A DNA stretch of 64,000 nt from an uncultured virus (IMG/VR IMGVR_UViG_3300025280_000025) (IMGVR_UViG_3300025280_000025); one strand, 5' to 3'; counted from the stretch's first letter, positions 7,899-46,274 are shown. Numbers and translations are program-made. The notes: generated by a model not told the origin, from the letters alone.

Positions 7899-8455
7899 TA
7901 CCTACCCCTCTTTCTTTTAGAGCCCAATCTTGGACTATAGCTAGTCATCCTCTTAGATGGATCGAGTGGACCGGGATAAGGATCTTTTTCTGAGTCTGGT
8001 AATCTTCCAGGATAGCGTTCTGGTTTTTGTGGAGGCCCCGATGGGAAATAAGGGTAGCCCGGAGGAGCCGTAGCACCTTGAGGGTCGCCAGAGTCACCAA
8101 AGAGCCAATTGAATAAACCAAAGTGTTTTGGCATTGCTCCTATTCCATAAGGGGGGTGCGATATATCTTTCCCATGTTCAGTCATTACCATATGATTACC
8201 ATACTCACCATGACTATGCATCTCAGGTCCGGAAAATCCATGACTATCGAATCTGTCTCCTTTCAAGATTGCGTCTAGTATACCAGTAGGTGTTTCATCA
8301 TATGGATCATACTTAGGTTCGTCACCCGGTCTAACGAAACTTCTCTCGCTGCCCCTACCACCTCTATTTTTTTTACCCTTTTTTCTCATAGGATCTGGGT
8401 TAGGTGTTGGACCTGGCCAAGGATTAATTGGTGTTGGTACTGGTGGAAAACTCAT
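7898..8455 (-). CDS. Pro-rich array protein ending RLGSKRKRGR
   Basis: TAATG coupling at both ends. Shares GAMPKHF and DPQGA.APPG with its neighbours. Confidence 0.7.
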   Translation of the reverse strand: MSFPPVPTPINPWPGPTPNPDPMRKKGKKNRGGRGSERSFVRPGDEPKYDPYDETPTGILDAILKGDRFDSHGFSGPEMHSHGEYGNHMVMTEHGKDISHPPYGIGAMPKHFGLFNWLFGDSGDPQGATAPPGYPYFPSGPPQKPERYPGRLPDSEKDPYPGPLDPSKRMTSYSPRLGSKRKRGR

Positions 8456-8934
8456 TACCTACCTCTCTTTCTTTTAGAGCCTAACTGGACTCCCCTTGTA
8501 TTCTTCTTCCTCTTACCTCTGCTCGGAATACTTCCTGGAGGAGCCATAGCACCTTGAGGATCTTCTTCTTCCTTCTCGAACCATTCCTGGAACGCTTCAT
8601 CTAGCCACGAAGTATCAAAGTGTTCATCTATTGCTCCTTCTTGGTAGGGACCTCTCGACCAATCATCAAGCGTGGGATTTTTAACGCCGATGTGGGTCAG
8701 ATCGTATGCAGGATCATCTGGGCTCACATGCCCCCAGATCGAATCAAAATCTTCGCCTTCTCTATAACCACCTATAGGGTTCTGAACGTAGTGCCACTTT
8801 ACGTGTCCTGCTTCATGCGGAGGTTTGGGCCAGCCAAGAACTGCAGGTCGGTTTTCATCTTCATCTTCAAAGCTGAATGCTTCTGGGTCTGAAAATTCGT
8901 AGAAAAATCGGTTAAACTTCTCTGCCAATCCCAT
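8455..8934 (-). CDS. Acidic array protein ending NTRGVQLGSKRKRGR
   Basis: TAATG coupling; GAIDEHFD and DPQGAMAPPG motifs. Confidence 0.7.
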   Translation of the reverse strand: MGLAEKFNRFFYEFSDPEAFSFEDEDENRPAVLGWPKPPHEAGHVKWHYVQNPIGGYREGEDFDSIWGHVSPDDPAYDLTHIGVKNPTLDDWSRGPYQEGAIDEHFDTSWLDEAFQEWFEKEEEDPQGAMAPPGSIPSRGKRKKNTRGVQLGSKRKRGR

Positions 8935-9497
8935 TACTTACCTCTCTTTCTTTTAGAGCCTAACTGAACTCCTCTTGTATTCTTTTTCTTACCTCTAGAT
9001 GCAGGAGGTTGTCCTGTGTTGCTACTACGATAGTACTCCTTTAGATCTTCTTCTTGTTGGTGCAACGAAGGGCTTGTGGGTTTAAACAAATCATCATTAT
9101 TGCCAGGAATATTCCACCAAGGCCAATCATCCATATCACCTAGTAGAATATTTGTCAAGAAGTCAAAATGTTTGGGTATTGCTCCTTCATTATAAGGATC
9201 TCTAAAGTTATAAAACTTTAATATATGTTCAGCCCATTCCTCTTCTGGGTTTTTCTCTGGATAGATATCTTCCCATGGTATTCTAGTTGGGGTATCTGGT
9301 ATTCTTTCAGGATACAGAGGTACTAGATCCCTGTCCTCCCCCTGTCCATTTCCTCCACGCGGGTGTTCTATTGGAATTTCTCTTTTACGAGGTCGACCCC
9401 CTGGCCCTTTCCTCGGTGGGTGTCTAGGTGGTCTTGGATTTGGATTCTGTGGAGGAAACCGTGGTGGTCTTCTCTCTTCTTTTTTACCCCATCCCAT
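8934..9497 (-). CDS. Pro/Arg-rich array protein ending NTRGVQLGSKRKRGK
   Basis: Likely start MGWGKK at 9497, right after the upstream stop (the track's GTG start at 9530 is also possible). GAIPKHFD motif. Confidence 0.7.
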   Translation of the reverse strand: MGWGKKEERRPPRFPPQNPNPRPPRHPPRKGPGGRPRKREIPIEHPRGGNGQGEDRDLVPLYPERIPDTPTRIPWEDIYPEKNPEEEWAEHILKFYNFRDPYNEGAIPKHFDFLTNILLGDMDDWPWWNIPGNNDDLFKPTSPSLHQQEEDLKEYYRSSNTGQPPASRGKKKNTRGVQLGSKRKRGK

Positions 9498-9498
9498 C

Positions 9499-9882
9499 TT
9501 AGTATGGCCACCAAGTTCTGTAAAGCCCACCTATTCCTTGAGGTGCTTCCTGCCACCACATATTATTGGCACCTTGACCGCCTGGTATTTGTGGACTTGA
9601 TCCACTACGTATGTGTTGTCGCAAGTATTGCTGCCTCGCGTAACCAGGATTTAGTGGGAATGGCTCATCTGGTGCGAAGCCTCGCGTTCCAGGAGCAGGC
9701 AATGCGTTAGGCCTGTCGGTTGGTCCTCCCCAAGCTCTCTCTGCTCTTGGTCTATTTGTTTTTTTCTTAGTCTTTGATCTGCTGCTAGGTCTTGGTCTTC
9801 CACCACCACCCCCTTGTGTAGATCTTGCCATAGGATGAACTGTTCTAAATCTTTGGCTATAGTCATCTCGTGGTGCTCCCAT
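9499..9882 (-). CDS. Basic low-complexity array protein (lacks the shared tail)
   Basis: TAATG-coupled to the upstream gene; R/G/P-rich. Confidence 0.55.
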   Translation of the reverse strand: MGAPRDDYSQRFRTVHPMARSTQGGGGGRPRPSSRSKTKKKTNRPRAERAWGGPTDRPNALPAPGTRGFAPDEPFPLNPGYARQQYLRQHIRSGSSPQIPGGQGANNMWWQEAPQGIGGLYRTWWPY

Positions 9883-10208
9883 TAATAACCCCTCTTCCTA
9901 CTTGCGGGCCTTTTAGCACCCAATCTAACTCCTCTTGTAGTCTTTCTTCTATTAGGCTTCTTTCTATTACTTCGATTCCAAAGTCTACCATATTCATCTC
10001 TAAAGCTTTTCTCTCCGCCTTCATCATCTTCTTCTTCTTCAGGTTCTTTCTCAGGTTGTTCAGGATCTGCTGGTGTCTCTTCTTCTTCTTCTTCTCTTTC
10101 CTCTTTAGGGAGAGGAATTGGATAAGGATCTCCAGTTCCTGGTAATGGTTTAACCCGTCCCCAGTCATCAACATGTTCGCGTGGTACTCTTCTTAGATGC
10201 CAGCCCAT
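9882..10208 (-). CDS. First array protein: acidic tract, then TTRGVRLGAKRPASRKRGY
   Basis: Preceded by the repeated RBS AAAGAGGGGTAGGTATG. Confidence 0.7.
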   Translation of the reverse strand: MGWHLRRVPREHVDDWGRVKPLPGTGDPYPIPLPKEEREEEEEETPADPEQPEKEPEEEEDDEGGEKSFRDEYGRLWNRSNRKKPNRRKTTRGVRLGAKRPASRKRGY

Positions 10209-21173: not shown

Positions 21174-23615
21174 TTACGCAAAGAAATAATCGGAGATTAA
21201 TACTCTAGTTATATCTAAAGTCCCCTTCTTTGGCACCTTAGGAAGTATAATCCCAAGTTGCTGTTGAACGTCCTCTTTAAACTTTTCTAATTGATTAACG
21301 CTATGAATATTAACAAACTCTTCTCTTAATATATCACGCATATCATCTACATAATTACAATGGCAGCCATATGAGTCGTGTATCATACACAAACTCAGTA
21401 TTCCTATTCGTGTTAGCCTAACTATTGTCATAAACATATGTGCAGCATCTAAACTGTGGATAAAGTTAGGAGCTATTGCTTGAGAAGCACCTCTTTTATT
21501 TACATCGTTAGATGCAGTAAAAAATGTCAGCTCTTTATTACCAAACAGTTTAGATACAGATCGCCTTGTGTTGATCTGATTGTAATGATGCACTACTTTA
21601 AACCCTGAAGGGGTAGTATATTCTACATGTTTATTTAAATCATTTGCTATAGAAATTATTTGTTTAAGATAATCTTTACCTTTGTTAGGTTCCTTAAGAC
21701 ATCTGTCCATGCTTGCTTTAATAGCACGGGCTAGCTCAGTTATAGCTCCACCCTTTTGGGCATCATCTACCCAGTCTAAGTGTCCTTCTACTTTCAAATA
21801 CTTTTGTATCCCATAGAAAGTAAGACCATACGGGTCACACATTGTACTACGCTTAGTAACTTTTCTATCAATAGCTTCATTCCAATACTCTAAGAAGTTC
21901 TTACACCACGGTATCTCTTCCTTGTGATGAGAACAATAGTCAGTTACTGCATCAGCAATGTGTTGATATAGATCTTCGGGAGTATCCTTCGGAATGATTC
22001 CAACCTTCTCTCCAATTGCAGCGTCACCCATAATGGCAGCCCAGTGTTGTGCTCCGTTGCATTGTCCGTCTAGTTGTACTGATACATAAGACATACCATC
22101 TTCTCGACAGTAGTCAAAGATAGCAGCCAGTCTTTGGAAAGACTTGTTCTTCTTCTTCTTGTTGTCTATCCATTCTTTATTCTCATAAGGATCTTCAGCT
22201 ATTCTTCTTATCATTTCTTCATTATCTTCTGTCCACTTAGCTCTATCATTAAGTGAAACCTTATCATAGTCAAACAGATTTGCAAGGTTAACTCTTTGCC
22301 AGTACCTGCCTCGCTCAGTAACCTTTACTCCATTAGAGAAACAGGCTAAGCTTTTATCAAAGTCAGATGACTGTGGGCTTAGTAATTCACAGCTTGTATA
22401 AGCTCTACCACGAAAGTCTAATGTAAATACATGATAAAAGTATTCCCATTTCATTAGGTCTGAAGCAAGTTGTAATCTGATTAGCATTCGCCCTCTGGAT
22501 TGTTCTTGTTTATACCAGTCCGACCATGCACCCTGCCTCCGTTGGCACCAAATTGCTTTGTCTACTTTACCCCCATCTTTAGGGTATTCTTCGTTGTACA
22601 TAAACTCTTCAAAAGAATAGCAAGGTAGGTTGGCTAGCTGTGTATTGTTTTTAAACAGCGTCTCCATAACCTCTAACACTTGTTCATTTACCTTCCACTC
22701 TGTTAACATTAAACTATTCAGCCCACTTATAACCTTATCAGAGGGTTCAGAATACTTCTGTTCTTTATCACTCTCTCCAAAATAGTTTGACTTAAACCTC
22801 TGGACCATAGGTTTTCTCATGTTTGTTTTAATATATCCTCCGCTTGCATTTTGTGTATGCAATTCAGGAGGAATAATCATTGGTCTGTATATCAGAGAGC
22901 TTGTCTCTAGTAACTGATGTCTTCTGTGTAGCTCTTCCAAGATTGAATGATGAAACTCTACGAAAGTATATCTTTTAAATGTATTACCCCTCTTAATTGG
23001 ACGGGTGTCCATAAAAATAATGTTACTATCAGCAGCTATCCTTAACATGTGGTGCCCGAAGTCATGCTGTTGTTTTATAGTTAACCTCATGTCCTCTTCT
23101 ACCTTTTTACTAAAGGCTTTACATCTTTTGGGTGTCCAATTCTTAATGAACTTAGATTGCTTCATCCAGTCTACTCTATAATTGCTCTTAGCTCTTTGGT
23201 AGGCAACGATATCTAACGCATCCTTAGCAATCAAAGTTGAAACGCTCTGTGCTAGTGGTGGAGTATGGAACTCTTCGTCAAGTTGTTGTCCCCAGAATCC
23301 ACTCGAAAACCAGCATCGTATAACAGCCCTAACTGCTATGTCTGCCATCTTTGATGCCCCTAATTCGAGCAAAGGTGTGACCCACATAGGAGTCTTAGGG
23401 TTCTGTACTATCTTGTCTATCCACTCTTGATAAACTTCAGTCAATTCTTTAACCGAACTATCTAACAGCTGTTGTTCGGGCAGCCCTTCATCTGGTGCCC
23501 TGTTATAATCATCCCAGTATTTAGATCTACTATAAATTAGCATATCATTTTCATAAGATACTTGTGCCTTACGTCTATCACTTTTCTTACTATCTGTTTC
23601 GTTAGCCCATTTCAA
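21174..23615 (-). CDS. Single-subunit T7-like DNA-directed RNA polymerase
   Basis: DFRGRAY, DGQCNGAQH, RKVTKRSTM..PYG, APNFIHSLDAAH and IHDSYG motifs. Confidence 0.97.
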   Translation of the reverse strand: MKWANETDSKKSDRRKAQVSYENDMLIYSRSKYWDDYNRAPDEGLPEQQLLDSSVKELTEVYQEWIDKIVQNPKTPMWVTPLLELGASKMADIAVRAVIRCWFSSGFWGQQLDEEFHTPPLAQSVSTLIAKDALDIVAYQRAKSNYRVDWMKQSKFIKNWTPKRCKAFSKKVEEDMRLTIKQQHDFGHHMLRIAADSNIIFMDTRPIKRGNTFKRYTFVEFHHSILEELHRRHQLLETSSLIYRPMIIPPELHTQNASGGYIKTNMRKPMVQRFKSNYFGESDKEQKYSEPSDKVISGLNSLMLTEWKVNEQVLEVMETLFKNNTQLANLPCYSFEEFMYNEEYPKDGGKVDKAIWCQRRQGAWSDWYKQEQSRGRMLIRLQLASDLMKWEYFYHVFTLDFRGRAYTSCELLSPQSSDFDKSLACFSNGVKVTERGRYWQRVNLANLFDYDKVSLNDRAKWTEDNEEMIRRIAEDPYENKEWIDNKKKKNKSFQRLAAIFDYCREDGMSYVSVQLDGQCNGAQHWAAIMGDAAIGEKVGIIPKDTPEDLYQHIADAVTDYCSHHKEEIPWCKNFLEYWNEAIDRKVTKRSTMCDPYGLTFYGIQKYLKVEGHLDWVDDAQKGGAITELARAIKASMDRCLKEPNKGKDYLKQIISIANDLNKHVEYTTPSGFKVVHHYNQINTRRSVSKLFGNKELTFFTASNDVNKRGASQAIAPNFIHSLDAAHMFMTIVRLTRIGILSLCMIHDSYGCHCNYVDDMRDILREEFVNIHSVNQLEKFKEDVQQQLGIILPKVPKKGTLDITRVLISDYFFA

Positions 23616-23953
23616 GAGTTAAGTTCCTTCATAGCTTTGTCGAATTCTTCTTGGGTTATTTCACCTATAGCTAGATCATACCGCAAGCCCCACTCTTTAT
23701 GGGGTATACTAACAGGTCTTTGCTTGTCGCCTTTGCCAGCACTCTTTTCATTCCAAGCAGTAGGTGTCCAGTTACTACCGTCCTGATTGTAACCATCACC
23801 TTTCCCATCTCGTTTTCTTCTTAATAAATTCTTTGGATTGTGCGGATCATTTTTTAGTTTACGAACCTCTCCGTCTTCACCATCACCTTTTTTCTTCCAG
23901 CCATCTGGATCTCCACCTTCAACATAGCTCCCTTGTTTCTTTTTCTTTGGCAT
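23612..23953 (-). CDS. Hypothetical basic protein (AGKGDKQRP motif)
   Basis: RBS GAGGAG; ATGA-type overlap with RNAP. Confidence 0.6.
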   Translation of the reverse strand: MPKKKKQGSYVEGGDPDGWKKKGDGEDGEVRKLKNDPHNPKNLLRRKRDGKGDGYNQDGSNWTPTAWNEKSAGKGDKQRPVSIPHKEWGLRYDLAIGEITQEEFDKAMKELNS

Positions 23954-24051
23954 TAATAATCTCCTCTGCAGTATTGGATTATAAATAGAATTATAATAAC
24001 TATTGCTAAGCTTATTCTCATAGGCATTCTGTCTTTTTCTGGATCAGTCAT
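23953..24051 (-). CDS. 32-aa TM peptide (not in track)
   Basis: MTDPEKDRMPMRISLAIVIIILFIIQYCRGDY; TAATG-coupled to the next gene. Confidence 0.45.
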   Translation of the reverse strand: MTDPEKDRMPMRISLAIVIIILFIIQYCRGDY

Positions 24052-24078
24052 GGATCATTCATGGATCATTCCTTATTA

Positions 24079-24626
24079 TATGGGCTTCAAGAGCCTGCCT
24101 TATGCTATCATCGGACGTACCTAAGCACTTAGGCGGTTGAGGCTCCCTGAGTATAGTCTCTTTCGGGAACTATACCACACCCATAGATTTAAGTAGCCCA
24201 GAGCAGGTGTGCTTTATATTTTATCCTGCTTTACTAGTCGCACCGTAGTGCTACTTAGATTGTTATCACTCTCCGTTTACTAGTGTACGCAAGGGACGGA
24301 GTTAACAGAATTCTCATTAGCTTTATGGGTTTATTTCCTCAAGCCAGTACACCTGTACCCTCTGATAGTGATATTAAATTGTCGGGGCAAGTAAGAACGT
24401 GGGCGGGTACCTCTCCGCTTTGTCTCCTGTCACCCTGCCTTTCGGCACTCGGCGAACTTACTTAACCCCATTAGATTGTCGGTAGGTTACGCCTACCAGT
24501 CGAGTATTTTAGACCCTATACTAATGGGTTTCGAGTTTTACAACTTCACAGGTTGTTGTATAGTAGAGATGCCTTGGCTACGAGTAGCCCAAATCTCTTG
24601 AACCCGTTGAGGCCGTGGTCCTATAC
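24079..24626 (-). ncRNA. Tandem array of ~8 compact structured RNA modules (array 1)
   Basis: No credible ORF. Back-to-back closed stems, GAAA/GUAA tetraloops on the minus strand, and four modules repeated in array 2 with compensatory changes. Confidence 0.7.
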
Positions 24627-25610
24627 TAACGAGAGTGCATGACGCATAACACGGGTAGAATTCTTGGCTGCTTCACCGATCAGCTTGTTGCTGATAGTAG
24701 CCTCGGTTGTACGACGCTTACGGTTTTGTAGCCAGTTCGTTACCGCATTAGCTGCGATCCATGCACTGTTACCAAACTCCTCTTGTTCTCTATCAAATGT
24801 TTCAGACCATCCATTAAGTATAGCCATAGCTTTCTTACGAGAGTTATGCTCTTCTTCAGTATAGGATGATCGTTGCGAAGGTATCTCACCTTCAAACATT
24901 GTGTAACAGTCACGCCAGAAGTTTGTTATCTCTTCTCTGTCCCATTTCTTAAGACCTAGTGTACACACTGCTGCTCGGAACTTAGCCTTGTGGTTCTTCC
25001 ATTCATCCAGTGCTTCTTTAAGTCCTAAGATCTTATCTTCCATGTCACCTTTGTGACGTAGTTTAATCATACGCTGTGATCCTTCACTAATAGCCCAGCT
25101 CAATGTGTTGTTACATACAACCCTGACTGAGGTAGGTAGTGCAGATAAACTTAGCGTACCATTGTGACTGTTCATTAAGCAGAGATACTCATGCATCTCA
25201 TCGTTGCCATTCACAGCCCACTCACTGTCCTTCATAAGGACATATGACTGTGCTCCATTGAACAGTGTGCCTGCTGTCTCGACCTGTAATCCAGGTACTG
25301 AGCCAGCAATGTCAAACAGTTCGCTGTTCTGTACAATCTTATAGTTCTTATTGACTACACCTAATACTTCTTCAGTATCAGTACGTACAGTAGCATGGAA
25401 TTTACTAGGCAATGTATAAAGCTTACCATAATAATCATCATTGGCATAATCAGCTACTAAAGGTTCAGACAGTACCACATTAAAGCCCATCTTAGCAAGT
25501 TGCATTGCTTCGTAGGGTGTTGGTGCATTCTCAACGACTGTTCCCAGTCCGTGCCATGCAGGCTTACCAACGTATACGGCATGGTCTTGTTCGTACATTT
25601 CATGTGACAT
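24621..25610 (-). CDS. DUF932-family (phage/plasmid-like) protein
   Basis: PAWHGLG, YKIVQN.ELF and NSHNG...TSVRVVCNNTL...HKG motifs. Confidence 0.9.
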   Translation of the reverse strand: MSHEMYEQDHAVYVGKPAWHGLGTVVENAPTPYEAMQLAKMGFNVVLSEPLVADYANDDYYGKLYTLPSKFHATVRTDTEEVLGVVNKNYKIVQNSELFDIAGSVPGLQVETAGTLFNGAQSYVLMKDSEWAVNGNDEMHEYLCLMNSHNGTLSLSALPTSVRVVCNNTLSWAISEGSQRMIKLRHKGDMEDKILGLKEALDEWKNHKAKFRAAVCTLGLKKWDREEITNFWRDCYTMFEGEIPSQRSSYTEEEHNSRKKAMAILNGWSETFDREQEEFGNSAWIAANAVTNWLQNRKRRTTEATISNKLIGEAAKNSTRVMRHALSLV

Positions 25611-25618
25611 AAGTTCTC

Positions 25619-27712
25619 CTATTCATCACTGTACTTTTCCCAATCGACATCATCCCAACGTTTGAGATCGTCTTTTATTGCCTGTCTCTTGGGTTTCTTT
25701 TTCTTTTTTTTAGGACGATCAGGTTCGGGCTTGTGCTTCTCGTACCTTATCTTCCGCTTTTTTGAGCTCATATTCCTCCATGCCTAAATAGAATTCAACG
25801 ACATCACCAGCTGGAACCCAGCCAGAATCCTCACGATAGACGAAACCATCATCTGTGAAGTCGAGAATCATTCCTAGTTTACGCATTTGTTCTAAACAAT
25901 TATCAGATATTTCTATCTTCATATCTGTCTCCTTAGCAAACAGCTGTATACAAGGCAGCTTTGCCTAGTATAACTATAAGTCTGTTCCAATACAGCATCC
26001 TCATATTTGAGTCACTCCATATTTAACATCCCAATATTTATTTTCTTTATTCCAATTACATTCCATCATTTCAGCCATGTAATCACATTCATAATCAAAA
26101 TCATCAGAATCATAGCCAGTTAAAGTGCCAACAATCCTAGTATAAATTGCTTGATCGACATCATCTGTGTATTGTACCATAATTGTATCGTCTGTCAAGA
26201 CCAATTGTGAATAATTATCATTATATTTTCCATCGCCGTATTCATAGTACCCTATCCCAGCACTTTCTACAGTATAGTCTAAGGTTTCTTTTATTAACAC
26301 ACGAATATCTTCTTCAGATACATAGTTTACTTCATTCATCTTTTATCTCCTTGAGACTAGCTTCTAGTTCTTCCATACTAAAGTTTAGTCTAGTATTAAA
26401 GTTATTTTCAGCTCTATTGAAAGCACCAGCTACTATATGTTCGAGGTCTTTCTCGAAGCCTATCATAGCATCAGAAATTAGGCTATCTATGTGCAGTTCA
26501 GCCCATGTCTTTAGCCTGTCTTCTATAACATCCCATATTCTATCTTGTTCTATATGAAGATCACAGATTATATGTCTGTCGCTCATTTCTTATACTCCTT
26601 TACAGTATAGATTATTCCATCACTCTTTTTACGTAGGCTATTAAAGTCATTGGCATCCTTAACGGCCTCTGATTTCTTATAGTATACAGCAGGCTTCCAG
26701 TCACCGTCGACTATCCAGCCACTATCCTTTACTCTAATGCCCCATTTCTTTACTCCTCGCATGGTACCTCCTTGGTATATGTATCCATACACTCGTCATC
26801 ACAGCCGTTACACCATACATACTCATTAAAAGAACCATCAGCATAGTCATCGCCTGTTATAGTATCATCGTGTAGTTTTTCCAAGGGTATCATTGCATCA
26901 TAGCCTTGCCATAGATCTGTACTATGACACTCACTACAGTGTTCAGTTATCTTTTTCATTCTTATACTCCTTGTGTTGCAAAGTATACTACAATGGCAGT
27001 ACTTACAATCACCTGTATTGTTATTAATACTATGGCAATGCGATTCATTCTTCGTTGCTTGGCTTGTAGTTCTTTATATTTCTGATTCATTCTTCCTCCT
27101 CAAGTGCATCTTCAAAGTAGGAATGATACTTCTTAATCAAGTCATCAACCCAATCCACATCACCACAGCCATGTTGTCCACCACATGCGTGATAGAACTG
27201 ACCACAGACATCCTTCCAATCGGGATCATCCCAATCAATCGCTTGCTTTGGCATCGTATTCATCCTCATCTATAAAGTCTATTCGTTCAGTGTTACAATC
27301 ATCACACCAATTATATTCCCAAGGGTAGTCAAGACCGCCCCTCACAGGCACATCATAGTCGTGACCATGAGTGTTGTTAGGATCATACATTGCTATGTGA
27401 CCCTCAGTTATATTAGTTCCCCCGCATTCGCTACATACCATTGTCACGGTTAGCCTCCTCACGCTCATCTATTTCATTTTCTTCACGAGATTCCATATGC
27501 TTAGTCATCCACTCATCATACTCAACACGCTCGACATCCCAGTCTCGCAGCTCCCCATCCTGTGTCTCCCAGTTATCCCACTCACCCACATAAGGATCTT
27601 TATCAAATATTGCACGGGCTTCTTCCTCTGACTCCGCCTCGACATAGCACTCACATGTTTCCCATGTGGTACTGGTTGTATTGATATCTATCCTATAGTA
27701 TTTCTTAGTCAT
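25619..27712 (-). other. Cluster of ~11 small acidic early genes, including two paralogous Zn-ribbon proteins (26750-26959, 27235-27468)
   Basis: Tightly packed minus-strand ORFs with AGGAG RBS; CSEC...WCxxC in two of them. Confidence 0.7.
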
Positions 27713-27737
27713 ATTGTTCTCCTGTGTTGGGTTAGTA

Positions 27738-28281
27738 ATTTCTTGTGCGGAGAGCCTTCCCTTTCTTAGGGATTCAACTATTTTAGGCTCTTACTCCGCT
27801 ATCAAGAAATAGATTGTGGAGGAGTAGTAGAGATCGGGGTGCTTTATATTTTATCCCGCTTTGGTCGACATGCACCATACTACTACTCCCCCTCTAGAAA
27901 ACCCCCACTAATATTTCTATTAGTGAGGGCGTGTGTAGTAGAGATGCCAAGATTATCTCTATTAACCCGTCTAGCCGTGGTTCTACACAATGGTATTTTA
28001 GACCCTATACCAATGGGTTCGCAGTTTTGGTACACACATGCTCAGGTGAGTAGTGTCTCGTTATCACACTTGTGAACCGCACACAACACGGGTTGATGGT
28101 TGCTGTTGGTGTTAACTTTATTTAAGGGGACCCTTCACCAAATTCAACCAATTAGTAGATACCCTCCAGTCCGAACTATGTAAGACCGAATTACAGTTCA
28201 AGCCCAGCCTAAAGGCACATGACTTTCCGGAAGGTACCTACTAAATGGGGCTCCCGTCATCGGGAAGAATCGGGGAGCCCT
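27738..28281 (-). ncRNA. Tandem array of structured RNA modules (array 2) spanning the segment A/B junction
   Basis: Homologs of four array-1 modules in a different order, plus further multi-stem elements at 27738-27810, 28091-28149 and 28152-28243. Confidence 0.7.
27896..27929 (-). terminator. Intrinsic terminator inside array 2
   Basis: CCCUCACUAAUA-GAAA-UAUUAGUGGGGG-UUUUCU. Confidence 0.65.
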
Positions 28282-28302
28282 AAGAGTGGGGGTGCTGAAT
28301 TA

Positions 28303-28827
28303 TTAACCCCCTAGTAGGGTCATGAGGTATTCACTCTTGTAAGTGGTAGTGCCACGTTCAGTATAATTGCATCGAATCATACATGCAACAGTAGAGTCGC
28401 CATTTAGTTTGGTTTCTACCTCATCGAATGCCGAACCTAGATCAGTTGGCTCATAACCAAGGATGGTTTTGAGGTGACCCTTCAATCTACTGAGTTCGAT
28501 ACGTGCCCGTATTTGTGATCCTTCATGTGTAAGTAAAGAAGCATCGTGTGGGATGGTCATGGGAGCACCATTCCAAATCAATGGTTCTGTTCGGTCAGGG
28601 TCTTCACAGAGTTGATAGTGAAATTGAACAGATACTGCAGGGAATTCTTGTTTGTCATCTGTTTGACGGAAGGTTCCATTTTGTACATTCATTCCGAGAA
28701 CATAACAAGCGTGTTCACCTTTGGGGGGCCATTCTCCTAATGAACCCATCCCTTGGTCTGCGGTTGCGGTTTCGAAATCCGATTGCAAGTTTGAGAAGAT
28801 TGCCTTCGTCTCATTACTAATGCTCAT
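28303..28827 (-). CDS. Putative SSB (DUF669-like OB fold)
   Basis: WPPKGEH pattern; lies downstream of an AAA ATPase and exonuclease. Confidence 0.55.
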   Translation of the reverse strand: MSISNETKAIFSNLQSDFETATADQGMGSLGEWPPKGEHACYVLGMNVQNGTFRQTDDKQEFPAVSVQFHYQLCEDPDRTEPLIWNGAPMTIPHDASLLTHEGSQIRARIELSRLKGHLKTILGYEPTDLGSAFDEVETKLNGDSTVACMIRCNYTERGTTTYKSEYLMTLLGG

Positions 28828-28830
28828 AAG

Positions 28831-29727
28831 TTAATCCTTCTTGTTTTGAGCCGATATGTACTGTCCTTCGAATGAAGACCACGCATCTTCTTGTGGAAGT
28901 TCAATACGATCTGGTAAGTCTACACGACATTTGGTGATTCCCGCAAGGGTCTCATCATTAATTGTCATATAATATTTTTGTGTTCTAATAGTTTCTGTTT
29001 TCTTGGGTCCTGGTTTACCACCAATTCCGGGGAGTTGTATTTGTTTTGATTCTGATATCCAATCGGATTCGAATGCTGCAACGAGTTCAAACATTGGGAA
29101 CAGTCTTTTATAGAACGAGTCGGTTATTGTAAGTTCGGGTCTGATTGTGTATCGGTCATCACCTAGTGGAATCTTTGCATTTACTAGGTGACATACATAG
29201 AAGAATCCGTAGCCGTGTCTGCGGAGATCTAACGAGAATCGGAGTAGTCCATCATAGACATCATCCCATGCTCTTCGACCATCAAGATCTTTCCAGTTCT
29301 CTCGACCTGCCTTCTTGGTTACATAATCTTTCATCAATTGAATTGAAGGACCAAGACTATCAAGTACGATTGTTTGTGGTCTTGCTTGTCCAGCTTCTGA
29401 CATTTTGATAAGTTGTTCTTTCTTCTTGAGAATTTCTTCCCAAGTAAGAACCATCTTTGACCCACCAACATCCATTGGCTCACCATTTTTAGTAACTCCA
29501 GGCCACATACATGCTTGCGGATTCGGATTGGTTGTACTGGTTCCATCTGTGTTAATGATGAATGCATTAGGGTTTGATTGTAAGAAGAATGATTTACCTG
29601 CTCCGGGCATTCCTACTATTAATCCTAGTAGTTGTCCAGGCGGATGAACCATTCGTTGTCCTGAAAAACCTAAGCCAGAATACTTCTGTGCTCCTGTTTT
29701 TCCTACCGCTAAGTCCTGTGTTTGCAT
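28831..29727 (-). CDS. AAA_24 / Sak4-like ATPase (recombination)
   Basis: GMPGAGKS Walker A, TIVLDS Walker B and VCH motif. Confidence 0.75.
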   Translation of the reverse strand: MQTQDLAVGKTGAQKYSGLGFSGQRMVHPPGQLLGLIVGMPGAGKSFFLQSNPNAFIINTDGTSTTNPNPQACMWPGVTKNGEPMDVGGSKMVLTWEEILKKKEQLIKMSEAGQARPQTIVLDSLGPSIQLMKDYVTKKAGRENWKDLDGRRAWDDVYDGLLRFSLDLRRHGYGFFYVCHLVNAKIPLGDDRYTIRPELTITDSFYKRLFPMFELVAAFESDWISESKQIQLPGIGGKPGPKKTETIRTQKYYMTINDETLAGITKCRVDLPDRIELPQEDAWSSFEGQYISAQNKKD

Positions 29728-31570: not shown

Positions 31571-31741
31571 TTATACGCTTGCGATAAGATTCCAAAGTTC
31601 ACGACATGCACCTGCTACCCAGTTAACACCTTCCCATGCGAAGGGAAGAAGTGCTAAGGTAATAAGTAAACTACGATTGATACCAACCTTATTAAGGGTT
31701 GAATCGACGATATCACTTGCACAACAATTATCTTTACTCAT
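31571..31741 (-). CDS. 56-aa membrane peptide (not in track)
   Basis: MSKDNCCASDIVDSTLNKVGINRSLLITLALLPFAWEGVNWVAGACRELWNLIASV; ATGA overlap. Confidence 0.65.
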   Translation of the reverse strand: MSKDNCCASDIVDSTLNKVGINRSLLITLALLPFAWEGVNWVAGACRELWNLIASV

Positions 31742-32127
31742 TTGGTTATTTCCTTTTTGAGTTTAACTATACGGGCTTGGCCCAGTGCCTTGATAGCCCA
31801 CAACGTACTAAATACTCCTGATGCTACGATGATCGGGAGTGCTATGAGATGAAAATACTCTTGTAACAAAGTATTAATAAAGATTAACCCTATCCCACCA
31901 AGAACAGGGTACCAACCTTTACGACCCGCTGAAACACAGAGTAAAACGATTCCCCCGAGAATTGAAATCCCCCCAATACTCGAGAGCATTGAGAGGGTAG
32001 GAATGGAGGATGATACTGCCTCTGTAACGGTTGCTATTCCACCCGTACTTGGCTTTGTAGAGAAGAGAGTATCTACGGCACATCCTCCAAGAGAAAAGGA
32101 GATTAGTAATGGGATTAGTTTCTTCAT
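31738..32127 (-). CDS. Lipoprotein-signal protein with ~3 TM helices
   Basis: SLGGC lipobox. Homolog of 18774-19175. Confidence 0.7.
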   Translation of the reverse strand: MKKLIPLLISFSLGGCAVDTLFSTKPSTGGIATVTEAVSSSIPTLSMLSSIGGISILGGIVLLCVSAGRKGWYPVLGGIGLIFINTLLQEYFHLIALPIIVASGVFSTLWAIKALGQARIVKLKKEITK

Positions 32128-32357
32128 ACGAATTTGAGTAAAAGAGTAAGGATACCAGAGAAGAACATGGCTGTCACCCCTGATATCATATACATCTTAG
32201 TCTTTAACTCAGTAATAGATCTATCGATATTGGATAATCGTTTGTCCAATAGATCAAGACGGTTATTGGCGCGATCCAACTCATTAACTACGAGTCGTTT
32301 GTATTCAGCCCAACCGTTCGTTCCTCCTTGGTTTGTTTCCCAAGGTTCGTTTACCAA
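32124..32357 (-). CDS. Coiled-coil + C-terminal TM protein
   Basis: PWET...GTNGW..YKRLV.NEL.R shared with 2830-3066. Confidence 0.65.
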   Translation of the reverse strand: MVNEPWETNQGGTNGWAEYKRLVVNELDRANNRLDLLDKRLSNIDRSITELKTKMYMISGVTAMFFSGILTLLLKFV

Positions 32358-38525: not shown

Positions 38526-38696
38526 GTGAATAGTGATAAACCAAAAATTGAAGGTCTTGGAGACATAATTAAAAGGCTTACCAATGCTGTTGGCGTTAAA
38601 ACCTGCTCTAAATGTGAGGAACGAAGAAAAAAAATGAACGAAATGTTCCCCATAAAAAAAGGCCAGCCTCATCCAAAGGACAAGACTGACCGTTAA
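38526..38696 (+). CDS. 56-aa GLGD...CxxC...R...N..FP protein (not in track), lone plus-strand gene
   Basis: GTG start; MNSDKPKIEGLGDIIKRLTNAVGVKTCSKCEERRKKMNEMFPIKK. Confidence 0.7.
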   Translation: MNSDKPKIEGLGDIIKRLTNAVGVKTCSKCEERRKKMNEMFPIKKGQPHPKDKTDR

Positions 38697-38740
38697 TGGG
38701 CTTTATATTTAAGACCTCTTGCCCATAAGTAGTGAGGTCT
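38696..38740 (-). ncRNA. H-type pseudoknot module with UAAAUAUAAAGC linker
   Basis: AGACCUC/GAGGUCU and AUGGGC/GCCCAU pairings. Confidence 0.6.
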
Positions 38741-41268: not shown

Positions 41269-41646
41269 TCACCACCACGAATCATAAAATACTTTCCTTC
41301 CTTCTTTAATCTCTTTTAATGCCCAATCACAAAACTCTAAGTCTTGCTCTTTATATTCTTTATCAGCATCACTACCAAAGAAGAATCCTTCTGTTTTAGG
41401 TAGATCTTGTGATTCAACATCCTTCTTCAAGCGTATGATGTCTTCTTTTGTAAGTTCTAGTGGACAACAGTTGAATTCATTCCATTCACCTGTCTTACTT
41501 AGTCCTTTAGACCTCCATAGTTCTTCCATCCAACCTTGTAGATTAGGATGTTTACGCCATTCATGACTAATATCATGATTTCCAGGTTCTTCTTCATTCT
41601 CTACTTCAAACGCTGTCATACTAAATGCTAATTGGTCAAGTCCCAT
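41269..41646 (-). CDS. Conserved phage hypothetical (MGLD...WRKHP.LQGWM...YDSWW family)
   Basis: Widely recurring motif set. Likely start MGLDQ. Confidence 0.75.
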   Translation of the reverse strand: MGLDQLAFSMTAFEVENEEEPGNHDISHEWRKHPNLQGWMEELWRSKGLSKTGEWNEFNCCPLELTKEDIIRLKKDVESQDLPKTEGFFFGSDADKEYKEQDLEFCDWALKEIKEGRKVFYDSWW

Positions 41647-41657
41647 GAGTATCTCCT

Positions 41658-42053
41658 TTATGCGGGTATAGCAGTACCGCTCCATGTACCTGTTATTTTA
41701 GGTGGTTCATATCTAATTACTTCTAGAAGCAATTTACGTTCCTTTGCAAAGTTTATCATGTGATATGTACCACTACGATGAGTATTACCATTCCAGAAGC
41801 ATACACATGCATCTGCATATTCAGCCATCTCTTCATTACGTAAAGGACCTGCTGATTTACCATATTTATCCCAATCAGCAGGAAATCTAGTAATTGGTAT
41901 GTCATGATCCATAGCAAACAGTTCACCAAATTGATCTGCACCTCTAGCGGTACCAGATACAACTTCAGTGATAGTCCAAGGTAGATCACTTAATGATATA
42001 GTCATCAATTCATAATCATCAAACTCTCTACCTCCAGCAATAATAGTTTTCAT
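41658..42053 (-). CDS. DUF2493 / YspA SLOG-family protein
   Basis: IIAGGREF, VSGTARGAD, AGPLRNEEM and GT..MI motifs. Confidence 0.88.
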   Translation of the reverse strand: MKTIIAGGREFDDYELMTISLSDLPWTITEVVSGTARGADQFGELFAMDHDIPITRFPADWDKYGKSAGPLRNEEMAEYADACVCFWNGNTHRSGTYHMINFAKERKLLLEVIRYEPPKITGTWSGTAIPA

Positions 42054-42187: not shown

Positions 42188-42898
42188 AGTTATCGTTAGT
42201 CTTCTTTATCAGTATATGAATCATTTTTAGAGTCATATATTTGGATGTCTACACTATCAACTTTTAGCGCATGTTTATAAATTGTTTTAATCCATTCATC
42301 CTTAGCTTCTTCTTCAAGTCTCTTTCTAATAATGTCATTTGTTTTATCACACTCAGTTATAGCAAAACATTTAGATATTCTAATAGTCTTACCATCTAAT
42401 CGAAGCAAGGCATTGGGTGCTAAAGTTAAATTGAAGTCAATCATTTCCCATTTCATAGTTGACCTCCTTTTGTTGTATCTGCTGGTACACCATCATATGG
42501 GTGACGTTCAGAATCTTGTATTGGGCATCCACCATGTACATGTTCATGATACTCAATTGCTTCTCCACATCGAGGACATTTATCATCTTGCTTATCAGTG
42601 GCCAACACTACGGTTGGTTCATCAAAGGTTTGAGCCTCATGTTCTGCGAGTGCTTCATAATTAACAACAACATCATATTCATTGTCATCTTCGAAATTGA
42701 TAGTAGTAGAAAGATATTCAAAATAAGCCTCCCACTTCTTTATAAGTTCGGTGGTCTTAGTGATTGCAATATCACTACTAACTGTTGCAGGTGTAATATC
42801 ACGAAGAGTTGCATTAATTGATCTTAGGTCTTGGACAAATAAATTGATTAAGTTTGTTTTAATGTTCATTTCGAGTCTCCATTAGGGGTTAATAAAAA

Positions 42899-43195
42899 AT
42901 TGATAAGGTGGATATCAGCATTATTAGATACCACTTACTTACACGTCATACAAGAGTCTGCAGAACCTACTTGCGCTCGCCAGTATAACCTTATCATTGA
43001 GTTTTAAAGAACAGTTTGACGAGACTGATTACTCGCCTATTGACATGTTCAGGTCAATTGGTGCATCTGGAATCCGATGCGTATTTTAAACCACATGTTA
43101 GGCAATTGGTCTCGATGTAAACTATTGTTGTCGGATTACTGCTCCTGGCCAAGGTGACAGATTTATATCACTCAAAACAATAATAATTTACAACC
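42899..43195 (-). ncRNA. Structured RNA array 3 (segment B early region)
   Basis: Relatives of two segment A pseudoknot modules (43009-43058, 43078-43112) plus a junction closed by UGAUAAGGU/ACCUUAUCA. Confidence 0.55.
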
Positions 43196-43366
43196 CACTA
43201 ATTTCGGCTTACCTTCGGTTGTTCCTTACCTAAGGCTTCTTGTAGTTAACAAGAGATGAAAATCAATTGCCCAACACAAGGTTTAAGGTTGATAAAAGGT
43301 TGGACTAACTATTTATAATCACGGTTAATTACACTAGTTTACTATTTGAAGTAACTTGCAATCAAC

Positions 43367-43407
43367 AAAAAAAGAAAAATGGGCAGAGCCTCCAATGAGG
43401 TTGCCCA
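43367..43407 (-). terminator. Intrinsic terminator after 43416-43901
   Basis: UGGGCAACCUC-AUUG-GAGGCUCUGCCCA followed by a long U tract. Confidence 0.85.
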
Positions 43408-43415
43408 CAATTATT

Positions 43416-43901
43416 TTACGCACGGACTGCTGTACCTGAAGTGGTGGTACCTTGTGAGTTGACATTCCAAATCACATGACTGATATCAATGTTGATTTCA
43501 GCGTCTGGATGGATACCGTATTGCTCAGCCACATCAGCGTCGATCTTCTGCTTGTACATACTTGCGAACATACGCTTAGCATGTGTCTTGCCAGATGATT
43601 CAACTGTCCACTCACGAAGGGTGGCATCGTAATTGAGTGGTAAGATAGCAACCATAGCCACTTGACCCGATGGATTACCATCAGAACCAGGTATGGGCAT
43701 GAACTGTACACCGATTTCTTGGAGTGGTTCCTTGATACGGAATGCACTTGCGAACTGTTTCGCATTTTCCAGTGTCGGGTTACCTTTCTTCGAAGTGGTT
43801 TCAACTACTGCTTTCAGTGCTAGTTGATTCATATCTACTACGGGCTTAGCAACAGCCGTGCTTTCTGAAGGGTTCTCTTTTTTCATGGTTTTACCTCCCA
43901 T
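43416..43901 (-). CDS. Hypothetical first early gene
   Basis: GGAGG RBS before MKKENP; has its own terminator. Confidence 0.65.
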   Translation of the reverse strand: MGGKTMKKENPSESTAVAKPVVDMNQLALKAVVETTSKKGNPTLENAKQFASAFRIKEPLQEIGVQFMPIPGSDGNPSGQVAMVAILPLNYDATLREWTVESSGKTHAKRMFASMYKQKIDADVAEQYGIHPDAEINIDISHVIWNVNSQGTTTSGTAVRA

Positions 43902-44296
43902 GTTCTGAGACCGCGATTATAGTTTGACGAGCCGACTGACTCATCTTCACCGCCTCCGTTGTCGCAGGTTGCCGCTCGTAGCCCGCAAATGAATGTGGGT
44001 CTGCCGTTGCCGTCCCGACATCGGTTTGTGTTCCGATACGTCTTGCGGGAGAGCGGTGACCTGCGACAAAGGGGGAGATGAGTTAGTCGGGTCGTCATAC
44101 TCTAACTGCGGTGTCTGATCATGGGGGTAAAATTGTAAAAGTGTCGCAGGCAACAGGAAAACATCGCGTCGTGCCACGGTAAACATGGCAGACCCATCTG
44201 TGTACAGAACGTCACCCCCCGTCGCCCCCTGTGTTTTTCTGTTGATTGTAGACGAAAGGGCAGTCCTCTCTAGGAATTTTTAGCTCAAAAACGCGG

Positions 44297-44530
44297 GTGA
44301 TCCAGTTGCGATCCGGGTATGTACCGCATGGCGTGGTTCAATAATCCCCACTCTAGGTACCTAGAAGCTCGATTTTGGCTCTTGATCCAGGTGATCCGGG
44401 TATTTTCTAACTATTGCGCGTATAGTAATATATATAAAGAGTACAGAAATACCCGGTACATGTGGCACACCCGGATCAAACCCCGATTCCAGTCTAAAAA
44501 CGAGGATTGACCCGGATCGGTCATCCGGTT
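44297..44530. promoter_or_regulatory. Putative replication origin with iteron-like repeats
   Basis: GATCCGGGTA x2 and GATCCAG x2 on the left, inverted (T)ACCCGG(ATC) x3 on the right of an AT-rich core; close to the SF3 helicase gene. Confidence 0.6.
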
Positions 44531-44540
44531 CACTACTGGT

Positions 44541-44834: not shown

Positions 44835-44852
44835 TATCAGTCCTTTCTGTGT

Positions 44853-46256: not shown

Positions 46257-46274
46257 TACTGTATCCTTTACATT

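Follow-up and report, generated by a model that had tools for sequence, protein, structure and literature searches.

The early region of phage T7 carries single RNase III processing hairpins between its genes (R0.3 to R1.3). In ToxI antitoxin RNAs of type III toxin-antitoxin systems, identical pseudoknot repeats of 34-36 nt lie beside a toxin gene and are cut by a specific endoribonuclease at a conserved site, and phages can carry ToxI mimics (pseudo-ToxI). Integrons combine gene cassettes and attC recombination sites with an integrase gene beside the array. The tRNA gene cluster of phage T4 reportedly encodes the small stable RNAs RNAC and RNAD (species 1 and 2), the role of which has, to our knowledge, been unknown for decades; we know of no account of a conserved spacer word or of combinatorial unit exchange in T4. 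In T4-type phages, promoter-plus-stem-loop cassettes (PeSLs) mediate shuffling, according to Arbiol et al. (2010, PMC2839356), and the manA RNA is presented (PMC2864571) as a motif of marine samples and cyanophage.

The present analysis concerns two blocks in the DNA of an uncultured marine phage (IMG/VR IMGVR_UViG_3300025280_000025; the window, that is, the whole stretch analysed, comprises 64,000 nucleotides). Array 1 (24079-24626) and array 2 (27738-28281) lie between genes of the early region, and both are rows of stem-closed units on the minus (gene) strand. Like T4 RNAC/RNAD and multi-tRNA precursors, they consist of separately folding small RNAs placed head to tail with no protein genes, presumably forming one precursor cut in short spacers; unlike in the T4 cluster, a single conserved word forms the spacer, and unrelated phages exchange the units in varying combinations. 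The arrays resemble T7 R0.3 to R1.3 as intergenic structures in the early transcript just before a T7-like polymerase gene, and a hairpin between early cistrons is present in both, but they string together different multi-helix units of 49-291 nt, up to 6 or more in a row, whose loops are conserved and whose conserved linker is a putative cleavage site. Tandem RNA units separated by a conserved site recall ToxI, whereas the units here are heterogeneous. With PeSLs they share short repeated structured elements, a place in early variable regions and module exchange between related phages; PeSLs are a sigma-70 promoter and a terminator flanking protein genes, while the units here are non-coding. 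A constant entry site, a variable cassette row, a hairpin element with a short core and unit gain and loss are integron-like, yet the array cassettes are not genes, and neither attC nor an adjoining integrase gene was seen.

Flanking Genes and Array Modules

Both arrays are situated between same-strand early genes upstream of the T7-like RNA polymerase gene, and array 1 directly precedes the polymerase operon. As the initial annotation had stated, the blocks hold no long ORF, those inside them being mechanical ORFs of 40-78 aa.

21174..23953, minus strand: genes for a basic 113-aa protein and the T7-like single-subunit RNA polymerase (phrog_414, E 1.6e-156), downstream of array 1
24621..25610, minus strand: DUF932 protein gene (Pfam PF06067, E 2.4e-37), upstream of array 1; marker of A-type arrays
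28303..28827, minus strand: 174-aa ORF, the gene with which the B-type replication arm ends; marks B-type arrays
24283-24465 and 24476-24601, both plus strand: mechanical ORFs, array 1
27839-28075 (plus strand), 27883-28035 (minus strand) and 27931-28053 (plus strand): mechanical ORFs, array 2

Apart from DUF932, only a weak SHOCT match was obtained with Pfam among the neighbouring proteins. The array-flanking genes vary among relatives. The A/B junction falls within array 2, and an assembly chimera may underlie the junction with what the initial annotation called the other phage.

Read on the minus strand, array 1 has the order Z-Y-W-U1-U2-X-U4, with the following elements.

24556..24628, minus strand: Z1, three-way junction with P1, P2, P3 and an extra hairpin in the P3 loop, overlapping the stop codon of the DUF932 gene; fold z -2.75
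24495..24545, minus strand: Y1 (core 24504-24539), short covarying hairpin with a UAAA-rich box
24481-24497, minus strand: W, hairpin GGUAGG-CGUAA-CCUACC (W with linker 1, 24472..24497)
24472-24479, minus strand: linker 1, ACAAUCUA, one G away from W
24383..24471, minus strand: U1, 89-nt unit with the predicted closing stem GGGGUUAAGUAAG / CUUACUUGCCCC; fold z -2.4; known in 2 distinct copies only
24375..24382, minus strand: linker 2, variant ACAAUUUA
24264..24374, minus strand: U2, 111-nt unit with the predicted closing stem AUCACU / AGUGAU; fold z -1.25; known as 1 distinct sequence only
24256..24263, minus strand: linker 3, ACAAUCUA
24190..24257, minus strand: X1, core GGUGCG..AAAGCAGGAUAAAAUAUAAAGCACACCUGCU in closing stem UAAGUAGC / GCUACUUA; fold z -1.96
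24080..24184, minus strand: U4, final unit, predicted to be stem-closed, ahead of the small ORF's ribosome-binding site; fold z -1.6; 2 distinct copies known

The order in array 2 is K-Y-Z-terminator hairpin-X-linker-R, so that the difference in module order put forward by the initial annotation is borne out.

28247..28280, minus strand: K1, G+C-rich hairpin right after the stop codon of the 174-aa ORF, conserved in B-type relatives
28152..28245, minus strand: K2, 18-bp closing stem UUAGUAGGUACC.. / ..GGGUAUCUACUAA, the interior varying among relatives; fold z -4.5
27985..28092, minus strand: Y2 (core 27993-28028) and a conserved upstream segment; 96% identity of the whole to an A-type array of the relative L004
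27931..27990, minus strand: Z2, short-form three-way junction; covariance model match 81.3 bits; fold z -3.5
27896..27930, minus strand: 13-bp hairpin followed by UUUUCU; fold z -5.6
27818..27892, minus strand: X2, the core of X1 in closing stem GGGGGAGUAGUAG / CUACUACUCCUCC; fold z -3.9
27810..27817, minus strand: linker ACAAUCUA, the sole one of array 2
27747..27799, minus strand: R, three stacked helices, final unit ahead of the ribosome-binding site and the AUG at 27712; fold z -4.5

Judged by its sequence, the hairpin at 27896-27930 looks like an intrinsic terminator; it was not listed by a simple scan. It is the only such unit in the window, the others having no U run, and in relatives a hairpin of this kind follows Z in mid-array (e.g., a unit of L083). 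Structure beyond chance was found in array 2 (z -5.5 on the minus and -4.65 on the plus strand) and not in array 1 as a whole, which folds no better than shuffles (z -1.1 and -1.7); single units of both arrays have fold z values from -1.25 to -5.6.

Linker and Unit Architecture across Relatives

A search pattern made of W plus the linker retrieved 30 IMG/VR and 49 metagenome loci, many of them from similar marine samples and mutually non-independent. W was matched 107 times, with a fully paired stem in 93 matches that represent 44 distinct arrays, and it starts the linker-separated part of every array in this set. Among 185,579 bacterial genomes the pattern gave 8 matches, none of which has both a paired W stem and a second linker nearby; one has the paired stem without a second linker, and another a second linker with the stem unpaired. 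The match in locus L103 proved to be a true CRISPR array hit by chance.

The linker ACAAUCUA(A) is strand-specific, is the most conserved element and occurs in up to 6 copies per array, with a single copy in 12 of the 44 arrays, as in array 2 of the window. Exact ACAATCTA was counted inside arrays 46 times in sense and 0 times in antisense orientation (9,088 nt), a count that leaves out the first linker, required by the search pattern, and that is partly circular because chained linker-like words had served to delimit the array spans; the 51,254 nt outside arrays contain 4 sense and 0 antisense copies. The linker is predicted to be unpaired in whole-array folds, and its constant element measures 8-11 nt, between cassettes of 49-291 nt. 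A closing helix was found in 37 of 62 distinct inter-linker units versus 6, 9 and 10 in three rounds of shuffling, and 48 of the 62 fold more stably in sense than in antisense orientation (Wilcoxon p 1.5e-4). Immediately downstream of every array comes a gene whose strong AGGAG site is entered by the last linker.

Similarity and Compensatory Changes

Where the initial annotation had counted four families common to both blocks, blastn revealed three similarity blocks in different order: its families H and B correspond to Z and X, and G and F are two parts of the Y region. X at 24206-24255 aligns with 27836-27887 (79% of 52, E 5e-8) and Y at 24504-24539 with 27993-28028 (89% of 36, E 1e-9), while Z is matched in two pieces, 24557-24573 with 27932-27948 and 24593-24626 with 27955-27988 (E 0.004 and 0.013). 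A covariance model of Z built without Z1 recovers Z1 with 26.5 bits (E 0.001, 373 kb searched). The compensatory stem changes between the window copies that had been reported are confirmed in P1 of Z (GUAUAG/CUAUAC versus GUGUAG/CUACAC), in the Y hairpin (AGUAU/AUACU versus GGUAU/AUACC) and in the inner stem of X (CAGG/CCUG versus CGGG/CCCG). The closing stems of the two X copies are unrelated in sequence and both pair; across relatives, one conserved X core sits within three unrelated closing helices, and the predicted pseudoknot stems of X are invariant and so informative in neither direction. Relatives of the modules had also been proposed at 38696-38740 and 43009-43112. There, none of 12 family profiles matched at E<=10, the Z model gave no match at E<=0.1, and blastn of the arrays against the window returned nothing at E<=0.5; the sole resemblance is a GGUUACCUUUCC word at about 38760, which recalls family T.

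In an alignment of 12 distinct Z rows, which was fitted to the model and is thus biased in favour of the structure, 88.5% of cells are paired and both sides have changed in 9 of 18 pairs, a result that 0 of 500 shuffles reach; slid controls gave 0-2 such pairs. Loop-loop pairing in Z occurs in two states, GCUA/UGGC and GCCU/AGGC, the former being a possible pseudoknot in Z2. The 9 rows of R have 95.8% paired cells and two-sided changes in 6 of 16 pairs, again reached by 0 of 500 shuffles, and all 5 true stem variants of W pair at 4 of 4 unconstrained positions. T and S have conserved cores with variable-length hairpins inserted at fixed sites; two-sided changes affect just 3 of the 31 predicted pairs of T. 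Y1 may form an H-type pseudoknot; the corresponding search of Y gave one in 20 of 29 contexts, too small a margin over the controls (12-17 of 29) to establish it. That these are real, selected RNA structures is probable; compensatory changes uphold the original proposal of structured RNA for Z, R and W, as does the bias of folding towards the gene strand.

Cassette Shuffling

Whole cassettes are exchanged, gained and lost at the linker between genomes. Among 45 arrays mapped, the module families (at least 12) occur in 38 different orders. Locus L004 contains cassette T together with one linker (158 nt) that is absent from L016, the break falling exactly at the linker and the empty site keeping a single copy of the linker word. 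The contexts of 44 arrays comprise 26 of A-type, 5 of B-type and 13 that are neither within the available stretch, and an identical linker and common modules are present in two unrelated phage types. The position of Z varies: it follows a gene stop codon in array 1 and Y in array 2, and other arrays have it internally or as the final module. The idea of interchangeable cassettes, already raised by the initial annotation, is strongly supported by the number of orders, the exact cassette-plus-linker indel and the occurrence in two unrelated phage types.

Comparison with Known RNA Families

No Rfam 15 model reached its gathering score anywhere in the window, in agreement with the earlier remark that the modules could be assigned to no named family; at E<=10, the interval 23900-28400 gave only 3 chance-level matches, all far below the gathering score. 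Rfam ribozyme models gave none at E<=10 in the window region and none at E<=1 in 9 related loci. ARAGORN found 0 tRNA or tmRNA genes in the window and 0 in 22 related loci, on which grounds an RNAC/RNAD-type cluster was rejected. Early non-coding regions of relatives do contain two known RNAs, neither of them present in the window: the final unit of L007 (4586-4667) passes the gathering score of tmRNA RF00023 (51.8 versus 47 bits), matching its tRNA-like domain, and L014 carries manA RNA at 289-483 (RF01745, 78.8 bits). In our own reading the L007 unit has a G3-U70 pair.

The analogy with ToxI that had been offered for the arrays fails in the tests applied here, as does a ToxI-like antitoxin array more generally: there are no tandem identical repeats, and no toxin-like neighbour or PADLOC family match was found among 14 neighbouring proteins. 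Tandem Repeats Finder detected no tandem near-identical repeats of about 34-45 nt in either block, the only row touching a block being an 11-nt repeat x 2.9 at 24040-24071. A CRISPR array, with identical repeats of 28-37 nt between unique spacers, or solitary CRISPR repeats were likewise rejected on account of the short constant element and of "spacers" that are conserved structured families.

Interpretation and Rival Explanations

Our preferred explanation, to which we give about an even chance, is that the arrays are exchangeable structured-RNA cassettes carried by early transcripts, in which the linker serves for processing or binding. Independently folding, stem-closed cassettes would lie between genes of early one-directional transcription units and be read from the gene strand. 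The design, as observed in relatives, begins with Y (a covarying hairpin or pseudoknot with its UAAA box), continues with CGAGUG and the constant hairpin W, and then presents cassettes of the size given above, each closed by its own terminal helix and spaced by about 11 unpaired bases centred on ACAAUCUA(A), until the last linker leads into the ribosome-binding site of the next gene; array 2 fits it less well because it has one linker only and no W. The array would be co-transcribed with early genes, although no RNA sequencing run was found to contain the stretch, and the linker would be acted on by an RNA-binding protein or by an endoribonuclease of the host, one similar to RNase E as in multi-tRNA precursors. 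The initial annotation likewise suggested co-transcription, probable processing into small RNAs and, as possible roles, decoys, sponges, nuclease blocks or ribozymes. Closing helices would shield the released units, which would act in trans as small RNAs during host take-over, with the unit of one relative mimicking the tRNA-like domain of tmRNA. Cutting at the linker, argued by analogy, is a tentative proposal somewhat short of even likelihood, and trans-acting products are a possibility of the same order.

The arrays could instead be cis-acting intercistronic leaders that remain within the early mRNA and regulate it: they might act as stabilisers on its 5' or 3' side, mark sites for RNase III or RNase E that separate cistrons as in the T7 early region, gate translation at the next ribosome-binding site or, as put-like antiterminators, bring the polymerase past the 27896-27930 hairpin. 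Their position directly upstream of a gene with an AGGAG site that the last linker enters, the place of array 1 just ahead of the RNA polymerase operon, the 18-bp helix of K2, of a size suited to RNase III, and terminator-like hairpins within array 2 and relatives' arrays all speak for such a role. The same modules, however, occur in many orders and positions, as exemplified by Z, and upstream of unrelated genes in two phage types, so that context-free units fit better than tuned cis-regulators; moreover, the tRNA-like domain in one relative is of a trans-acting RNA kind, and we regard leaders as rather unlikely. PeSL-like DNA regulatory cassettes, with Y as an early promoter, hairpins as terminators and repeats as recombination points that shuffle neighbouring genes, are quite improbable. 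Such a role would suit the TATAAA or TAAAAT box of Y (Y1 scores as a promoter, TCGAAA-17-TAAAAT), the one hairpin followed by a U run, the varying flanking genes with the A/B junction inside array 2, and the published precedent (PMC2839356). Yet promoter-like sites are not enriched (18 versus 14.1 +/- 3.4 in shuffles), the box varies (TATAAA, TAAAAC, TAAAGG, CAAAAA) without conservation of the -10 T at position 6 and sits in the loop of a covarying hairpin, and the window has one terminator-like unit only. What is exchanged, furthermore, is non-coding units within one intergenic block and not genes between cassettes, and neither a promoter nor a terminator needs the covariation found in the internal helices of Z and R.

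Miniature mobile DNA elements would explain the closing stems as terminal inverted repeats, the linker as a duplication upon insertion at ACAATCTA, the arrays as repeated insertion at one site and the RNA fold as a by-product. Inverted repeats do bound every unit, the same 8-bp word stands on both flanks with a single copy at the empty T site, and units are common to unrelated phages. The end repeats of the families are nevertheless mutually unrelated (GGGGAGUAGUAG, GUUACCUUUCC, GACUCUG, GGGGUGGG, AUCACU), so that many transposases with one common target would be needed, whereas no transposase or integrase adjoins the arrays among the neighbouring proteins examined; internal helices and loop-loop pairing covary, linker and fold stability are strand-specific, and the word is not used as a target elsewhere, with its 4 copies in 51 kb outside arrays, all of which makes insertion elements highly improbable. 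A sponge, in which repeated single-stranded ACAAUCUAA between rigid helices soaks up a host RNA-binding protein or endoribonuclease (e.g., an ACA-cutting toxin) and cassette interiors are mostly spacers, is also very unlikely. It would account for a linker that is the most conserved element, strand-specific, multicopy and predicted to be unpaired, and the identity of the linker in two unrelated phage types suggests a host partner; against it, the interiors are conserved families with covarying helices and conserved loops, not free spacers, the linker is single in 12 of the 44 arrays and in array 2, and the PADLOC search of the neighbouring proteins was negative.

An extension of the preferred cassette explanation, improbable in our estimate, is an integron-like platform for RNA, in which W and the ACAAUCUA core would form a docking site and cassettes would be recombined at the 8-base core and released as trans-acting weapons by cutting there. 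Ready-made cassettes would be picked up, dropped and rearranged by unrelated lineages with a host in common; these cassettes could be tmRNA or tRNA mimics or decoys for host defence or RNA-decay proteins. If true, phages would have a common pool of exchangeable non-coding RNAs directed against the host, a counterpart to the anti-defence islands of proteins in early regions.

Implications

Phage early regions are known to be rich in small proteins directed against the host. A comparable repertoire of exchangeable structured RNAs was not found described in the literature searched, and the arrays point to an undescribed kind of exchangeable non-coding RNA cassette. If this is true, the locus would contribute around twelve new RNA families (W, X, Y, Z, R, T, S, V, Q, P, K, U1, U2, U4), more of which could be found by a simple search for the constant hairpin plus ACAAUCUA, and the conserved linker would help to identify the enzyme or protein by which it is recognised. 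Two unrelated lineages of marine phages would draw on one set of RNA parts, and it would become a testable question whether host take-over or counter-defence by phages involves modular non-coding RNAs, a tmRNA-like mimic among them.

Architecture of the two arrays

The arrays are modular, closed units being joined by one strand-specific linker. Both arrays of the window, array 1 (24079-24626) and array 2 (27738-28281), lack long ORFs and are read on the minus (gene) strand; the ORFs inside them are mechanical and just 40-78 aa long, in agreement with the initial annotation, which had described both blocks as ORF-free. Window 1 to ~28290 is the left part of an uncultured A-type phage, in which all genes are on the minus strand in the order major head protein, portal, ribonucleotide reductase, DNA polymerase, primase-helicase, SSB and T7-like RNA polymerase. 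Two of its genes serve as landmarks:

21174-23615, minus strand: T7-like RNA polymerase
24621-25610, minus strand: DUF932 gene, upstream of the polymerase, as are small early genes

Sensitive blastn of array 1 against array 2 revealed three similarity blocks, corresponding to modules X (24206-24255 and 27836-27887), Y (24504-24539 and 27993-28028), and Z (24557-24626 and 27932-27988, in two pieces). The module order on the gene strand is Z-Y-W-U1-U2-X-U4 for array 1 and K-Y-Z-hairpin with a U run-X-linker-R for array 2. The reordering is thus as first proposed, the modules originally named H, G plus F, and B being Z, the Y region, and X, respectively. The fold of array 2 is much more stable than those of its shuffles (z -5.5), which does not hold for array 1 taken whole (z -1.1); single units range from -1.25 to -5.6. 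The modules had been left without a named family, and this stands: Rfam gave no hit in the window at the gathering score and only chance matches at E<=10. The window also contains no tRNA. The relatives claimed at 38696-38740 and 43009-43112 could not be recovered by the 12 family profiles (E<=10), the Z model, or blastn. In the B-type part, one more ORF-free block, ~545 nt long (42870-43415, minus strand), is much more stable than its shuffles (z -3.9) and matches neither any module family nor the linker design.

Next to array 1, at 24040-24071 (minus strand), three tandem 11-nt copies resembling AUGAUCCAUGA produce overlapping start-stop mini-frames immediately before a hydrophobic ORF of 32 aa (24051-23953, minus strand), which by eye is conserved in the related locus L051 and whose stop codon overlaps the start of a 113-aa gene.

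Linker and leading hairpin

In the arrays of relatives, the units are parted by one short word, ACAAUCUA, mostly in the form (G)ACAAUCUAA, and the first unit is always the W hairpin (GGUAGG-CGUAA-CCUACC), which is preceded by CGAGUG. A search pattern combining the W loop and the linker identified 30 IMG/VR loci and a further 49 loci on metagenome contigs. The W stem is fully paired in 93 of 107 hits, and these 93 represent 44 distinct arrays; its five variants are each fully compensated. The remaining hits are chance matches, including two coding sequences and a true type V CRISPR array on an 80-kb metagenome contig (L103; 900-2000 and 1948-2622), whose 36-nt repeats contain a linker-like word by chance and which adjoins a TnpB/Cas12-like protein with a C-terminal zinc-finger and RuvC motif, unrelated to the RNA arrays. 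In the bacterial genome collection, none of eight pattern matches combined a paired W stem with a nearby second linker, giving no host clue.

The 44 arrays, spanning 9,088 nt, contain 46 sense copies of the exact linker word and no antisense copy, a count that excludes the first linker demanded by the search pattern; well below one copy per 9 kb is expected. Flanking sequence holds 4 sense and 0 antisense copies in 51,254 nt, and this inside/outside contrast is partly built in, as array spans were delimited by linker-like words.

The idea that the linker is a promoter for the phage RNA polymerase was rejected, because ACAATCTA (8 copies in 64 kb, 3 of them within arrays) is absent before middle and late genes and because array-bearing B-type relatives have no RNA-polymerase match (0 of 5 records). 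Nor was there support for W being a hairpin promoter of the N4 type, used by a virion RNA polymerase: neither PHROGs nor Pfam shows a polymerase signature in the 5,565-aa protein of the A-type relative G003. This protein is encoded at 42681-59378 (loci L041/L042), directly before a terminase-sized gene, and its sole PHROG/Pfam match is a weak exonuclease-like stretch. No conserved phage promoter was seen repeated across window 1-24100; a repeat family at 7899, 8456, 8935, and 10208 (minus strand) marks the starts of paralogous genes. Here, within 7898-10208, four neighbouring genes open with ~20 nt of AAAGAAAGAGRGGUAGGUA plus AUG, with at most 62 nt of 5′ similarity, and by sequence they look like a tandem paralogous family.

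Module families and base pairing

The 62 distinct inter-linker units measure 49-291 nt (median 97.5). A closing helix pairs the unit ends in 37 of 62, compared with 6-10 in shuffles, and the gene strand folds more stably than its complement in 48 of 62 (p 1.5e-4); these statistics are restricted to true arrays, a preliminary count of 40/70 versus 16/70 having included chance matches such as the CRISPR contig. Profile searches delimit families X, R, T, S, V, Q, P, Z, K, U1, U2, and U4, which together with W and Y make 14 named module types.

Judged by comparison of sequences, base pairing is under selection in W, Z, and R. Across 12 distinct rows of Z, pairing holds in 88.5% of cells and two-sided changes occur in 9 of 18 pairs, a result that 0 of 500 shuffles reach, with 0-2 such pairs in slid controls; the alignment behind these values is model-based and hence fitted to the model, a MAFFT alignment having misplaced P2 and P3. 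Short and long forms of Z switch two loops jointly (GCUA/UGGC versus GCCU/AGGC), which suggests a loop-loop pseudoknot. R (9 rows) is 95.8% paired with two-sided changes in 6 of 16 pairs, values that none of 500 shuffles reach. The 45-nt core of X is kept within three unrelated closing helices, and the sequence of its candidate H-type pseudoknot never varies. T and S carry variable-length hairpins inserted at fixed points of conserved cores; in T, two-sided changes are found in only 3 of 31 pairs. At least five versions of Y exist, all of them short hairpins with a UAAA box in the loop and a covarying stem (GAUGC/GCAUC, GAUUC/GAAUC, GAUAC/GUAUC, GACAU/AUGUC, and AGUAU/AUACU versus GGUAU/AUACC). 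An automatic search for Y pseudoknots did not discriminate (20/29 contexts versus 12-17/29 in controls).

Exchange among relatives

Comparison across arrays demonstrates exchange unit by unit between genomes and lineages. Family mapping yielded 38 different module orders among 45 arrays. The arrays of related loci L004 and L016 are identical except for cassette T and one linker (158 nt), the break falling exactly at the linker. An A-type context (DUF932 and/or the pre-polymerase gene) surrounds 26 of the 44 arrays and a B-type context (a 174-aa ORF) five, the other 13 having neither in the available stretch. In B-type relatives, the X core equals the X1 copy of the window exactly, while flanking genes are merely 80-87% identical.

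Known RNAs also occur among relatives. The last unit of the array in locus L007 (4586-4667, plus strand) is a mini tmRNA of 82 nt that consists of the tRNA-like domain and lacks the mRNA-like part (51.8 bits; gathering score 47). Its acceptor stem GGGGCCG/CGGCUCC appears to hold a G3-U70 pair, and CCA is not encoded. In a 65.9-kb A-type relative, the early non-coding region contains a manA RNA (RF01745, 78.8 bits; L014:289-483, plus strand), which is located upstream of the homolog of window gene 41269-41685.

One 20,288-bp IMG/VR contig (L063 and L064) carries the same W-led array near both ends in opposite orientation, which reflects either a duplication of the termini in inverted orientation or an artefact of assembly. 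In the B-type record G005, the product of the gene right after the array (L045:1138-2352, plus strand) is 404 aa long and carries a cpYpsA SLOG domain (E 7e-19); the gene preceding array 1 of the window is the DUF932 gene. Genes of both families typically belong to accessory or anti-defence regions.

Two phage types and their junction

Three A-type relatives (G002-G004, records of 65-68 kb) are collinear with window 1-27712, and in G003 every gene is on one strand and the ends share a 127-bp overlap. Among 50,697 phage records, no cultured relative gave a nucleotide match, and the identity of the window RNA polymerase to enzymes of the T7 group does not exceed 25%. From 28303 to 64000 the sequence looks like another phage, of B-type, whose replication arm occupies the minus strand (46322 down to 28303) and whose structural arm is on the plus strand. 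Collinearity with this replication arm is seen in the 34.6-kb record G005, which has no RNA-polymerase match.

The A/B junction falls within array 2 and is also present in two IMG/VR contigs (L023, 99.7%; L019, 98.4%, over ~2 kb). The join may be an assembly chimera via shared modules, since in window 27500-29500 run contigs break and branch at module borders (27745, 27898, 27948, 27992, 28093, and 28149) and the depth ratio of A side to B side, from ~1.3 to ~0.4, differs between runs. Several small genes (41269-41685, 26583-26792, 31738-32127, and 32124-32357) are common to the A-type and B-type parts or their relatives, so both types draw on one gene pool; homologs of the 138-aa gene at 41269 adjoin early genes in G002-G004.

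Known systems and proposed role

Among the closest known systems are the tRNA cluster of T4, which holds unexplained stable RNAs, and the early region of T7 with its RNase III sites. PeSLs, described as promoter/terminator-type cassettes, are also close (PMC2839356). None of these is known to combine the three features of the present arrays, namely heterogeneous units of several helices each, a single conserved linker, and combinatorial sharing between unrelated phages, and no description of arrays of this kind was found in the open-access texts searched.

Several other explanations account for part of the picture. That the units are cis-acting leaders is unlikely, though the most credible of these. 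PeSL-like promoter/terminator cassettes are distinctly improbable; Y itself is read as RNA and not as a promoter, because the final T conserved in -10 elements is missing from its UAAA box and promoter-like sites show no enrichment. A sponge formed by the linker is slightly less probable again, and last, at a very low likelihood, come miniature mobile DNA elements that duplicate an 8-bp target. The analogy with ToxI drawn in the initial annotation fails, given that neither ToxI-like repeats nor a toxin neighbour is present.

Support is good both for the structures and for their exchange as modules. From their shared orientation and position, the arrays would be transcribed together with the early genes; no RNA run containing 23900-28400 was listed. 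The linker, unpaired in the predicted folds and constant across unrelated phages, may be an endonucleolytic processing site, by analogy with multi-tRNA precursors, or a protein-binding site. The units, being independent of context and including a tmRNA-like member, would act in trans.
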